Shown here piece by piece: positions 764 to 51,327 of a stretch of 64,000 bases of DNA. Source of the stretch: Betaproteobacteria bacterium (lineage in GTDB: Bacteria > Pseudomonadota > Gammaproteobacteria > Burkholderiales > CAIKXV01); assembly GCA_021298815.1 (NCBI GenBank), contig JAJTHE010000031.1:21-64020 (forward strand), read 5' to 3'. Made by a program: the position numbers and the translations under genes. Under the pieces are notes generated by a model, which was not told where the DNA came from, ran no database searches, and worked only from the letters and a program-made list of their open reading frames with translations. Position 1 is the first letter of the stretch, and every line of letters begins with the position of its first letter.

Positions 764-1357
764 TCAGCCGGTGTGCTTGCCCACCGCCCATCCCTTGTCC
801 GCCAGGTGCTTCCCGCCCACCTCGAGCGGCTCTTCCTCGAGCGGCGTGGCCATCGAGTCGTTCCACCGGTTCATGAAGCCGAACAGCGACACGGTGGCCG
901 CGATCTCGACGATCTGGCCCTCGGTCCAGTGCTGCTTCATCCGGTCCATCAGTTCGTCGGTGACGTCGTTCGGCTGCGACGCCGCCGCGATCGCGAAGTC
1001 GAGCGCGACCCGCTCGGCCTCGCTGTACAGCGGGCTGCTGCGGAATTCCCAGATCGCGTCGAACTTCGCTTCATCGATCCCGAGCCGGAGCGCCGCCCCG
1101 GCAGTGTGGGCCATTCAATAGTTGCAGCCGTGTGCCTTGCTGGCCATGTACGAGACCAGCCGCTTGAACGACACCGGCACCTCGCCATCGGGCGCCCAGA
1201 TCGACGAGGCCAGCGCGGCCAGCGCCTTCAGGATCTCCGGCTTGCGCTGCAGGATCAGCGCGCTGTTGGGCACGAAGCCGAGCGCCTTGCGGTAGCGATC
1301 GAACGATTCCTCGAGGCCGGGGACCGAGCCCATCGGCAGGGGGGCGACACGTGACAT
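764..1357 (-). CDS. AhpD-like / carboxymuconolactone decarboxylase (CMD) family peroxidase-related protein with an in-frame TGA (1115-1117); candidate selenoprotein of 197 aa
   Basis: Track ORFs 1115-1357 and 764-1114 are contiguous and in the same frame, separated only by TGA. The junction reads ...SKAHG-C-N-Y-[TGA]-M-A-H-T-A-G..., so the TGA sits where the AhpD-family core motif C-x-x-C-x-x-x-H has its second Cys. Confidence 0.6.
1084..1102 (-). promoter_or_regulatory. putative bacterial SECIS-like hairpin
   Basis: mRNA reads UGA-AUGGCCCACACU-GCCGGGG-CGGCG-CUCCGGC. This is a 7-bp stem (one G-U pair) with a 5-nt G-containing loop, starting 12 nt after the in-frame UGA. Confidence 0.3.
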
Positions 1358-1383
1358 GGCTGTTCTCCTTTCGGTGATCGGGA

Positions 1384-1791
1384 CTACGACTTCGTGACCT
1401 TGTCCTGCACGCGCTGGTCGAAGCGCTCGACATTGACCACCACCCGGTCGTGCAGGCCGTCGCCGACGAGTTCGCGCTCGTCGCGCGCCTCGACCCGGAA
1501 GGTGATCAGCCGGCCCTCGACCTTGACCACCTCGGCGGTGGCCACCACCTTCATGCCGATCGGCGTCGCCGCCACATGGCGGATCTCGAGCCGGGTGCCC
1601 AGGCTCTGGTGCCCGGCCGGCAGGAAGTGCTCCGCCGCCTGCAGCGCCGCTGCTTCCATCAGGTTGACCAGCACCGGCGTGGCGAGCACCTCGACCTTGC
1701 CACTGCCGACGTGCGGCGCGGTATGCTCGTGGGCGACGGTGACCTCGTGCCGCCCCTGGCTTCCGACAGGGACCTTCAGTTCGAATGCCAA
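1384..1791 (-). CDS. hotdog-fold thioesterase (fluoroacetyl-CoA-thioesterase-like family)
   Basis: C-terminal 135 aa of track ORF 1384-2073: ...ATPVLVNLMEAAALQAAEHFLPAGHQSLGTRLEIRHVAATPIGMKVVATAEVVKVEGRLITFRVEARDE... The start is uncertain. TTG at 1791 is proposed because the ATG at 1887 would overlap the divergent pirin start. Confidence 0.6.
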   Translation of the reverse strand: MAFELKVPVGSQGRHEVTVAHEHTAPHVGSGKVEVLATPVLVNLMEAAALQAAEHFLPAGHQSLGTRLEIRHVAATPIGMKVVATAEVVKVEGRLITFRVEARDERELVGDGLHDRVVVNVERFDQRVQDKVTKS

Positions 1792-2747: not shown

Positions 2748-3890
2748 GTGCCCGTGAACGACATGCCCACCGCCGGGACCTCCGGCGCCACCCGTACCAC
2801 CGGCACAAACGGCCCCGCCGGGACCGACGCGGGCGCGGGCGCGGGCGCCGGCGCCGGCGCAGGTGCGTCGCCCCTGGCCGACGCCCCGAGGCTGACGCCG
2901 AAGGCTATCGTGCGCCACCTCGACCTCGAGGTGATCGGCCAGGACGACGCCAAGAAGACGCTCGCCGTGGCGATCTACTCGCACCAGCGCAAGCTCGAGG
3001 CTGCGCGCATGCGCGGGGTGCCGCTGGCGAAGAGCAACATCCTGCTGATCGGGCCCTCGGGCACCGGCAAGACCCTGATGTGCGAGTCGCTCGCCCGCTT
3101 CCTCGGCCTGCCGTTCGTGACCGCGGATGCCACCGCGCTGGCACAGACCCGCTACGTGAACGACGAGATCGAGGCGATCCTGCAGCGCCTGCTCGACCAT
3201 GCCGACGGCGACCTCGCCGCCGCGCAGCGCGGCATCGTGTTCATCGACGAGATCGACAAGCTGAAGGCGCGCGACGGGCAACCAGCCGCGGTGTCCGGGG
3301 AATCCGTGCAGCATGCGCTGCTGCGGGTAATGGAAGGTTCGCTGGTGCGCCTGCGCGGCGACGACGGACAGGCGCCTGCGCGCTACATCGACACCTCCGG
3401 CATCCTGTTCATCTGCGGCGGTGCGTTCGTCGGCCTGGACGAGATCATGGCGCGCAACCAGAGCTACGGCTTCATCTCGACCTCGGGCGCGGACGACCGC
3501 ACGATCCTCGACCGCCTGAACGCTCGGGTGAAGCCCACCGACCTCGTGCTGTTCGGGCTGATCCCGGAATTCACCGGCCGCCTGCCGGTGATCGCCCGGC
3601 TGCACGACCTCGACCGCGCGGCGCTGGTGCGCATCATGACCGAGCCGCGCAACTCGCTGTACCGCCAGTGCCAGGCGGTGTTCGAGGCCGAGGGCGTGAA
3701 ACTGGTCATCGAGCCGCGGGTGTTCGAGGAGATCGCCGACCTCGCGCTCGAGTACCGCACCGGCGCCCGCAGTCTGCGCGGCATCTTCGAGGAACTGGTG
3801 ACGCCGATCCTCTACGTCGTGCCTGACCAGCCGGAGATCCGCAGGGTGGCGATCACCTCGCTGTTCGCCGGCCCGACGGTCACGCGCTAG
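2748..3890 (+). CDS. ClpX-like AAA+ ATPase lacking the N-terminal zinc-binding domain
   Basis: GTG start 2 nt after the pirin stop, with GGAG 7 nt upstream. Walker A is LLIGPSGTGKT and Walker B is IVFIDEIDK. A ClpX-like block is present: FGLIPEFTGRLPVIARLHDLDRAALVRIMTEPRNSLYRQ...TGARSLRGI. The N-terminus is a low-complexity TDAGAGAGAGAGAGAS stretch instead of a C4 zinc finger. Confidence 0.8.
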   Translation: MPVNDMPTAGTSGATRTTGTNGPAGTDAGAGAGAGAGAGASPLADAPRLTPKAIVRHLDLEVIGQDDAKKTLAVAIYSHQRKLEAARMRGVPLAKSNILLIGPSGTGKTLMCESLARFLGLPFVTADATALAQTRYVNDEIEAILQRLLDHADGDLAAAQRGIVFIDEIDKLKARDGQPAAVSGESVQHALLRVMEGSLVRLRGDDGQAPARYIDTSGILFICGGAFVGLDEIMARNQSYGFISTSGADDRTILDRLNARVKPTDLVLFGLIPEFTGRLPVIARLHDLDRAALVRIMTEPRNSLYRQCQAVFEAEGVKLVIEPRVFEEIADLALEYRTGARSLRGIFEELVTPILYVVPDQPEIRRVAITSLFAGPTVTR

Positions 3891-46213: not shown

Positions 46214-47698
46214 TCAGCGGGCCGGCAGTTTGCTCTGGCCCACGTGGGTGACCAGATCGTTGACCGAGGTATGCAGCACTTCGGTGAAGGGCAGCGGCCA
46301 GATGCCCATGCCGAGCACGGCGACCGCCAGCAGGCCGAGCACGAGCGCTTCGCGGCCGGAGAGATCCTTCAGCCCGGCGACGGCGGCATTGGCGACCTCG
46401 CCGAACACCACCCGGCGGTACATCCAGAGCGTGTAGGCGGCGCCGAAGATCAGCGTGGTCGAGGCGAGCACTGCGTACCAGAAGCTGACCTCGATCGCGG
46501 CCATGATCACCATGAACTCGCCGACGAAGCCGCTGGTGCCGGGCAGGCCGGCATTGGCCATCGCGAACAGCATGAAGAAGGCCGCGAACACCGGCATCGT
46601 GTTGGCCACGCCGCCATAGTCGGCGATCGCCCGGCTGTGCACCCGGTCGTACAGGACGCCGACGCAGAGGAACATGGCCGCCGAGATGAAGCCGTGGGAG
46701 ATCATCTGCACGATCGCCCCCTCGATGCCCAGCGCGTTGAACAGGAACAGCCCGAGGGTGACGAAGCCCATGTGCGCGATCGAGGAATAGGCGATCAGCT
46801 TCTTCATGTCGGTCTGCACCAGCGCGACCAGGCCGATGTAGACCACCGCCACCAGCGACAGGGCGATCACGATACCGGCGAGCGCCTGGCTCGCATCGGG
46901 CAGGATCGGCAGCGAGAAGCGCAGGAAGCCGTAGCCGCCCAGCTTCAGCATGATCGCGGCCAGCACCACCGAACCGCCGGTGGGCGCCTCGACGTGCGCG
47001 TCCGGAAGCCAGGTATGCACCGGCCACATCGGGATCTTCACCGCGAAGGCGAGGAAGAAGGCGATGAAGATCAGCACCTGGGCCTCGAACGCGATCGGCA
47101 GGCGGTACCACTCGGACAGCGCGAAGCTGCCGTCGGACAGCAGGAACAGGTAGATGAGCGCCACCAGCATCAGCAGCGAGCCCATCAGCGTGTACAGGAA
47201 GAACTTGACCGAGGCATACACCCGGTTCGGGCCGCCCCATATGCCGATCACGATGAACATCGGGATCAGGGTGGCCTCGAAGAAGAAGTAGAACAGCAGC
47301 GCATCCATCGCGCAGAACACGCCGTTCATCAGCCCCGACAGGATCAGGAACGCGGCCATGTACTGGGCGACGCGGTTGTCGATCACCTTCCAGCCGGCGA
47401 TCACCACCAGCACGGTGGTGAAGCTGTTGAGCAGGATCAGCAGCAGCGAGATGCCGTCGATGCCCAGGTGGTAGTTGATGTTGAACGCTGGCACCCAGGG
47501 CAGGAACTCGACGAACTGCAGGCCGGGCTGCTGCGGGTCGAACCCGAACCAGAGCGGCAGCGTGACCGCGAAGCCAGCCAGCGCGCCGGCCAGGGCGAGT
47601 ATCCGCGCCAGCCCGGCATTGCGGTCGGAGCCGGTGGCCAGCACGAGCAGCGCGCTGGCGATGGGCACCCAGATGGCCAGTGTCAGCAGCGGAGTCAT
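46214..47698 (-). CDS. nuoM: NADH-quinone oxidoreductase subunit M
   Basis: 494 aa. ...[39 protein letters not shown]... is the typical NuoM/ND4 motif. Confidence 0.9.
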
Positions 47699-50835: not shown

Positions 50836-51327
50836 TCAACGGTAGTTCGCATCGGCCATCCTGTCGCGCGCGATCTGGTCTTCACAGCGGTCGCCGATCG
50901 CCAGCAGCATTTCCTTGGTGTAGACGAGGTCGCCACGGCGCTCGCCGTGGTACTCGAGCGTGCGCGTCTCGACGATCGAATCCACCGGGCAGGACTCCTC
51001 GCACAGGCCGCAGAAGATGCACTTGGTGAGGTCGATGTCGTAGCGGGTCGTGCGCCGGGTACCGTCGTCGCGCACCTCGGACTCGATGGTGATCGCCATC
51101 GCCGGGCAGACCGCCTCGCACAGCTTGCAGGCGATGCAGCGTTCCTCGCCGTTCGGGTAGCGGCGCAGCGCATGCAGGCCGCGGAAGCGCGGGCTCTGCG
51201 GCGTCTTCTCCTCCGGGTACTGCACGGTGATCTTGCGTGCGAACAGGTTGCGCCCGGTCAGCATCATCCCGCGAAGCAGTTCGAGCAGCAGGAAGGAACG
51301 GAAGAAGCTCTGGATGCGGTTGATCAT
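50836..51327 (-). CDS. nuoI: NADH-quinone oxidoreductase subunit I
   Basis: 163 aa with two 4Fe-4S ferredoxin motifs, [12 protein letters not shown] and [12 protein letters not shown]. Confidence 0.95.

Follow-up and report, generated by a model that had tools for sequence, protein, structure and literature searches.

An in-frame TGA that very probably encodes selenocysteine (Sec) lies within what we read as one 197-codon gene, at positions 764–1357 on the minus strand of the window, by which we mean the whole 64-kb stretch of DNA that was analysed. We put the probability of this reading at roughly 0.9. The predicted product is shown by homology to be an all-alpha protein of the AhpD/CMD fold, in the 'peroxidase-related' TIGR01926/COG2128 group. 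The features on which the argument turns, all in or directly upstream of the gene, are the following.

764..1357, minus strand: putative selenoprotein gene of the AhpD/CMD fold, TIGR01926/COG2128-like, with 197 codons and a terminal TGA at 766..764
1115..1117, minus strand: in-frame TGA, codon 81 (U81 in the Sec reading), which pairs with the second Cys of GCxYCMAH
1124..1126, minus strand: codon TGC (Cys78); Cys78 partners U81 in C-x-x-U and is invariant in the homologue alignment
1106..1108, minus strand: CAC codon for His84, three residues after U81, invariant and also kept in Bmp8
1084..1102, minus strand: SECIS-type hairpin GCCGGGGC-GGC-GCUCCGGC, within the coding sequence at codons 86–92
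1365..1370, minus strand: AAGGAG Shine–Dalgarno sequence, 7 nt 5' of the ATG at 1357, as read from the sequence
1384..1791 (start approximate), minus strand: gene for an FlK-family hot-dog thioesterase (PF22636, E=4.5e-34)

Translation of the minus strand from 1357 to 764 gave 80 amino acids, a TGA (1117..1115), a further 116 amino acids and a second TGA (766..764). This bears out the initial annotation, which had described two open reading frames that share one frame and are separated by a single TGA, and it reproduces the reported junction H-G-C-N-Y-TGA-M-A-H-T, here seen in the wider context K-A-H-G-C-N-Y-[TGA]-M-A-H-T-A-G. The 116-residue fragment occurs in identical form on 11 contigs and the 80-residue fragment on 173, from independent assemblies, which excludes a read error as the source of the TGA. 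The expectation that automated annotation would split the gene was also correct: the public proteins are MCE2946923.1 (80 aa) and MCE2946922.1 (116 aa), and the gene callers all cut the locus in two. The longer fragment is named either 'carboxymuconolactone decarboxylase family protein' or 'hypothetical protein', the shorter one 'hypothetical protein', and JGI labels the fragments 'alkylhydroperoxidase family enzyme' and the Cys-containing homologues 'uncharacterized peroxidase-related enzyme'. No read-through protein of the Sec-containing clade was present among the matches from a collection of 5.8 billion protein clusters, where the best match was 72% identical. On our reading, an annotation error is corrected whereby one redox enzyme is stored as two 'hypothetical proteins' in many public assemblies.

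To place the protein in a family, searches were run with the TGA codon read as Cys. The Pfam CMD domain (PF02627) spans the TGA, covering residues 40–122 with E=2.7e-11 and 43.7 bits against a gathering cut-off of 23. The 'peroxidase-related enzyme' family TIGR01926 is the best named non-specific family for the 197-residue protein, although its cut-off was missed (65.9 versus 81.8 bits, U replaced by C). The scores for the 'YciW-related (seleno)protein' family NF053654 (70.7 versus a cut-off of 310 bits) and for AhpD_rel_CFYUT, NF041238 (23.9 versus 175 bits), show that it is a member of neither. The large protein collection contained 3442 homologues at E<=1e-10, the best of them single polypeptides of 197–204 residues, 60–72% identical to the query over 93–100% of its length. 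The column of the TGA is occupied by Cys in all 21 aligned homologues and in 119 of the best 120 of the 3442, within a nearly invariant G-C-x-Y-C-M-A-H-T motif in which Cys78, Met82 and His84 do not vary. The window protein carries the corresponding C78-N-Y-U81-M-A-H84, that is, a CxxU followed by His, with the Sec in place of the second redox Cys, as in Sec-containing members of the TIGR01926/COG2128 group. The alignment thus confirms one-to-one the proposal that the TGA replaces a Cys of the CxxC. The initial annotation had spoken of 'the resolving or second Cys', of which 'second' is what the alignment supports, while the choice between the two had been left hedged. Its motif C-x-x-C-x-x-x-H did not hold: the spacing is C-x-x-U-x-x-H, with the His three residues after the Sec, as in Bmp8. 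Homologues split at this point without a TGA, which the initial annotation had named as grounds for giving up the proposal, were not found.

We then asked how often the TGA recurs, with a scan of GTDB genomes, one for each species, for exact matches to GGN TGY NNN TAY TGA ATG GCN CAY AC. All 67 pattern matches were true homologues, and the same TGA was present at 66 loci of distinct GTDB species genomes, nearly all of them labelled as Betaproteobacteria or Burkholderiales MAGs. At loci that reach the gene end, the frame 3' of the TGA stays open for 114–134 codons, mostly 116. The terminal stop differs between these loci (TGA, TAA or TAG), which indicates that the genetic code is standard and that the gene end is real. 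Metagenome contigs were scanned with the same pattern, now with TGH at the critical codon; among the 121 matches listed, this codon was TGA in at least 16, TGC in at least 100 and TGT in at least 5. Nucleotide diversity among the TGA-containing sequences (hereafter Sec forms, as opposed to Cys forms) was 0.18, 0.15 and 0.45 at the three codon positions after the TGA and 0.26, 0.12 and 0.43 before it. The same pattern on either side argues that the 116 downstream codons are translated and under purifying selection.

In a neighbour-joining tree, 72 unique Sec forms grouped as a single clade with none of the metagenomic Cys forms inside; when the 120 nearest database proteins were added, eight Cys forms fell within the span of the Sec clade. 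The genome of the window itself is outside the GTDB representatives scanned. Members of the clade are 77–94% identical to the window in nucleotide sequence across the gene region, and the nearest loci show 88–94% DNA identity. Copy number varies in places: one MAG, SG8_41, has three paralogous Sec forms, namely a tandem pair (L012, at 976 and 1617 on the plus strand) and a third copy at L042, and Cys-form copies stand in tandem at another locus (L154). Six loci (L001, L034, L013, L017, L040 and L059) are titled 'Bordetella parapertussis', 'uncultured Bordetella sp.' or 'uncultured Streptomycetaceae/Streptomyces'. Since these MAG sequences cluster with those labelled Burkholderiales or Betaproteobacteria, their taxonomic labels are probably unreliable.

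Downstream of the TGA, a hairpin GCCGGGG-CGGCG-CUCCGGC occupies 1102..1084, separated from the TGA by a 12-nt spacer (1114..1103). The 7-bp stem with its 5-nt loop was therefore found exactly where it had been predicted, 12 nt past the TGA; it can alternatively be drawn with 8 bp and a GGC triloop. The further suggestion that it is a bacterial SECIS fared differently by the two kinds of evidence, being backed by the comparison of Sec with Cys forms and finding no support in the stability of the single sequence. Taken alone, the window hairpin was no more stable than its shuffled versions (MFE -19.6, shuffle mean -20.1, z = 0.17). As this stability is at chance level for a G+C content of about 70%, which is that of the window, the significance of the hairpin comes only from comparison across sequences. 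Rfam searches of the whole window at gathering thresholds, and of 700–1450 at E<=10, returned no SECIS or other relevant family, the only matches being FTX_5 and Xoo8 at chance level.

Comparison revealed a clear difference between the two forms. When eight pairs were scored in a fixed register, 71 of 73 unique Sec forms had 7–8 of them, while all 102 unique Cys forms had 5 or fewer. Mean local MFE was -19.5 kcal/mol in Sec forms against -13.8 in Cys forms (Mann–Whitney p=2.5e-16). This difference is written in synonymous codons: Gly codon 6 is GGG in 62 of 73 Sec forms (GGA in 9, GGC in 2) and GGC, never GGG, in Cys forms; Leu codon 9 is CTC in 73/73 Sec forms and mostly CTG in Cys forms; and Arg codon 10 is CGG in 55/58 Sec forms and mostly CGC in Cys forms. 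Codons that border the stem are free to vary among Sec forms. In an alignment of 67 sequences, 94% of cells were paired, compared with 31–61% when the 3' arm was slid. Compensatory double changes occurred at three pairs (C-G to U-A, C-G to G-C and G-C to U-G), and the covariation score of the hairpin was above that of 500/500 shuffles; the covariation is modest (7 double-change cells) because the stem is almost invariant. The loop of the Sec-form hairpins is GGC, or CGGCG/CGUCG, and contains a G. A small apical loop containing G is a feature of bacterial SECIS elements (PMC1088965). In this comparison the Sec-form hairpin behaves as a bacterial SECIS does, and the locus combines a TGA that aligns with Cys, conservation on both flanks and a SECIS-like hairpin kept among orthologues.

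Compared with the E. coli fdhF type and the bSECISearch consensus, the window hairpin is likewise within the coding sequence, with its stem 12 nt past the UGA and a small G-containing loop. It differs in having no bulged U, with a conserved G-U pair at 21–29 instead, and in a loop of GGC/GUC rather than GGUC; its binding by SelB is putative. Among Cys forms, the two nearest to the Sec clade (L189 809–1423, P0020, and L191 951–1565, P0010) still form 6–7 of the 8 pairs in a hairpin whose centre is broken by a CTC-to-CTG change. This could be either a fossil SECIS left by Sec-to-Cys reversion or a proto-SECIS. The gene context of these two loci is different, with CoA-transferase, glyoxalase, TctC and Ldh_2 genes.

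Searches for the Sec machinery were made in the window and at the 195 loci fetched. tblastn with E. coli SelA, SelB and SelD gave no match in the 64-kb window or in the fetched Sec-clade loci, and ARAGORN detected tRNA-Sec neither in the window, whose only tRNA is a tRNA-Leu, nor at any of the fetched loci. The sole tblastn match, at L188 2019–2480 on the minus strand, was to an open reading frame resembling SelD (selenophosphate synthetase), of which the C-terminal end is present at the edge of a contig. One open reading frame separates it from a Cys-form AhpD-like gene some 1.2 kb away.

An independent sign of Sec decoding by the lineage comes from a neighbouring gene. At 22 Sec-form loci, and at none of about 105 Cys-form loci, the AhpD-like gene adjoins a gene of about 410 codons from the GrdB/PrdB selenoprotein B family (PF07355; TIGR04483 PrdB, 102.9 bits), which in most of the 22 loci starts about 28 nt downstream of it.

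L003 3385–4689, minus strand: PrdB-like gene, example, beside the AhpD-like(U) gene
L004, L005, L010, L014, L016, L023, L026, L036–L038, L040, L041: other loci with the PrdB-like gene
L044, L046, L048, L049, L053, L064, L099, L144, L185: remaining loci with the PrdB-like gene

The PrdB-like gene has a conserved in-frame TGA of its own, in the motif L-L-T-P-V-[TGA]-P-N-C, in agreement with the UxxC that a published table gives for selenoproteins of the PrdB family (PMC2398784). Eleven nucleotides past this TGA lies a conserved hairpin, GUGCGCC-GUG-GGCGCAC, again with a G-containing triloop. If Sec machinery were lacking, it would be difficult to account for a recoding geometry shared by two unrelated genes of the same genomes. 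We consider the machinery likely to be present in the genome of the window; the PrdB-like gene was not found in the 64 kb covered by the window. The arrangement suggests a possible two-selenoprotein operon of AhpD-like(U) and PrdB-like(U) genes. This pairing was not found in the literature surveyed, where pairs of Prx-like and AhpD-like genes are described.

Could the TGA instead be a lesion? A TGC/TGT-to-TGA nonsense change or a sequencing error in an ordinary Cys-type CMD gene would take one base change from TGC, and it would sit well with the handling of the locus as two fragments by annotators and with a 64-kb window in which no Sec machinery was seen. However, a dead or misread gene would not be expected to share its TGA with 66 species-level genomes and many metagenomes, to keep the frame 3' of it intact and under purifying selection, to maintain by biased synonymous codons a hairpin specific to the Sec forms, or to recur in identical sequence on many independent contigs. 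The comparative data on recurrence, selection and hairpin effectively refute this explanation, which we regard as scarcely credible. A true split gene, in which ribosomes stop at the UGA and restart at the adjoining AUG through UGAAUG coupling, appeals to the ATG that directly abuts the TGA and to the prediction of both open reading frames by gene callers. Termination presumably competes with Sec insertion as well, for example at low selenium. Yet in Cys forms, too, the residue that follows the second Cys is invariably Met, which means that the ATG is no special adaptation, and a split would divide the CMD domain as well as the catalytic CxxC...H motif. It would also leave unexplained why a register-locked hairpin and frozen codons accompany TGA forms only, and why the internal stop is always TGA, never TAA or TAG, when the gene end uses all three. 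We hold such a split to be highly improbable, and rate just as low its expected product, chains of 80 and 116 residues assembled non-covalently with Cys78 alone at the active site.

Read-through independent of Sec, with the UGA decoded by a near-cognate tRNA (Trp/Cys) or a suppressor and the hairpin merely slowing the ribosome, draws on the fact that downstream hairpins can in principle promote read-through and on the machinery genes not having been observed for this genome in the 64-kb window searched. Against it, the position is that of the catalytic redox Cys, a classic site of Sec/Cys exchange; selenoproteins of this family are documented (PMC1088965); the geometry is SECIS-like, with a stem 11–12 nt past the UGA and a small loop containing G (for the loop, PMC1088965); and the unrelated PrdB-like gene of the same genomes has the same hairpin geometry. 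Sec-form genes also end in TGA, which indicates that the code has not been reassigned. We give this possibility very little weight, and retain selenocysteine insertion as the reading of the TGA.

AhpD-like and CMD-domain selenoproteins had been said to be known from computational surveys, and the family is indeed published (PMC1088965, PMC2398784, PMC13188914). AhpD-like (COG2128) proteins with a CxxU motif entered the literature in 2005, when 27 sequences from the Sargasso Sea were described as a new family of selenoproteins (PMC1088965). In the 2008 GOS survey, 'AhpD-like 1' was among the most abundant families, with 299 selenoproteins and 902 Cys homologues (PMC2398784). The family is listed with TIGR01926 in a 2026 selenoproteome review (PMC13188914) and can be browsed in BSepDB (PMC13326102); a 2022 selenoproteome review lists it as well. 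The window gene resembles this AhpD-like CxxU family (COG2128 YciW/TIGR01926) in its CMD/AhpD fold, the Sec at the second Cys, the widespread Cys homologues and the stem-loop with a G-containing loop just past the UGA. On these likenesses it is best taken as a member or sub-clade of the already catalogued family. In contrast to that family, it belongs to a distinct, apparently monophyletic Burkholderiales clade, mostly from freshwater and groundwater, that scores below the TIGR01926 cut-off. What is modestly new is the size and apparent monophyly of this Betaproteobacterial clade, its systematic mis-annotation, its affinity to Bmp8 and the PrdB-like pairing. The only Betaproteobacteria selenoprotein recorded by a 2006 survey was FdhA (PMC1794560), and the clade would extend selenocysteine use in freshwater and groundwater Burkholderiales beyond formate dehydrogenase. 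It also provides a natural data set of about 70 Sec forms, about 100 Cys forms and some Cys forms with a degenerate hairpin, which can serve the study of Sec/Cys exchange and of a SECIS built from synonymous codons. Selenoprotein biology is not changed in kind by the window gene.

The closest solved structure is that of Bmp8, the tetrabromopyrrole debrominase of marine Pseudoalteromonas (PDB 6ohi/6ohj; E=4.6e-30, 35% identity over 174 residues). The similarity includes the catalytic CxxC position: both proteins have G-C-x-Y-C-x-x-H, with U for the second C in the window protein, and both have the GF(L/M)NRWN motif. Together with the Pfam CMD match, the Bmp8 match settles the fold at the sequence level. 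Bmp8 is reported to remove bromine by oxidising its own Cys residues to a disulfide (PMC5577590). It differs from the window protein in having Cys at both positions and in belonging to a bromopyrrole biosynthetic cluster, whereas the window gene has the Sec in second position and is flanked by ettA and a gene for an FlK-type thioesterase; its neighbours include neither a halogenase gene nor a bmp-like one. AhpD of Mycobacterium tuberculosis likewise has the CMD domain, with a redox centre of CxxC plus His where a helix begins, but is more distant than Bmp8 (AhpD-type matches at E of about 1e-6 to 1e-10; AhpD chain 6e8l at E=2.3e-6), and no ahpC partner gene is adjacent to the window gene. We take the second Cys of AhpD (Cys133), the equivalent of the TGA position, to be the nucleophile and not the resolving residue. 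The His of AhpD is at +4, compared with +3 in the window protein.

We infer the following course of synthesis and catalysis. Ribosomes would start at the ATG at 1357 and meet the UGA at codon 81, where the mRNA hairpin at 1102..1084 would recruit SelB with Sec-tRNA(Sec), so that Sec would be inserted in place of termination and translation would run on for 116 codons to the true stop at 766..764. This terminal stop, also a TGA, has no in-register hairpin. The redox centre of the product would be Cys78-Asn-Tyr-Sec81-Met-Ala-His84. The selenolate of U81 may be the nucleophile that attacks the substrate (a peroxide, a halogenated compound, or a sulfenic acid or disulfide), and Cys78 would resolve the selenenyl intermediate to a selenenylsulfide, which a cellular thiol system could reduce to recycle the enzyme. 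Such two-residue chemistry would be that of AhpD or Bmp8, with selenium expected to speed the first step. The enzyme may reduce peroxides or disulfides, or it may act as a reductive dehalogenase. A bolder proposal, which we consider unlikely, is that the clade is a selenium-dependent reductive dehalogenase or reductase of the Bmp8 type that forms a two-selenoprotein module with the PrdB/GrdB-like protein in about a quarter of the genomes. If true, a Bmp8-type Sec dehalogenase would be a bacterial parallel to thyroid deiodinases and their selenocysteine chemistry, and not a peroxidase helper.

The local gene order is FlK-type thioesterase (PF22636), selenoprotein gene, GC-rich palindromes, ettA. 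The thioesterase gene is co-directional and upstream, with its stop 26 nt before the ATG at 1357, and this pair recurs in the same order on independent contigs. Pirin, AAA+ ATPase and RND efflux system genes follow beyond it. Across the Sec clade, the neighbours are variously pirin, thioesterase, a TetR-like regulator, TctC or the PrdB-like gene, and because of this variation the context says nothing firm about what the copy in the window does. Right after the stop of the gene, at 701–750, are two GC-rich palindromes, CCCGGGCCGGCGCCGGCCCGGG and CCGCGGC-ACCG-GCCGCGG, the latter followed by GTTTCG. They are terminator-like in appearance, and a scan of 500–2100 for promoter and terminator consensus sequences called none, these palindromes included.

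A scan of the whole window for other coding-like frames that cross a stop gave three more candidates, at 46617 (plus strand, TAG) and at 50838 and 60571 (minus strand, TGA). The latter two are probably not recoding sites, as their flanking translations look like neighbouring genes in the same frame. The AAA+ (ClpX/AAA_2-like) ATPase gene, at 2748–3890 on the plus strand, encodes an N-terminal (Gly-Ala) repeat, GAGAGAGAGAGA, and starts 1 nt past the end of the pirin open reading frame (1886–2746).
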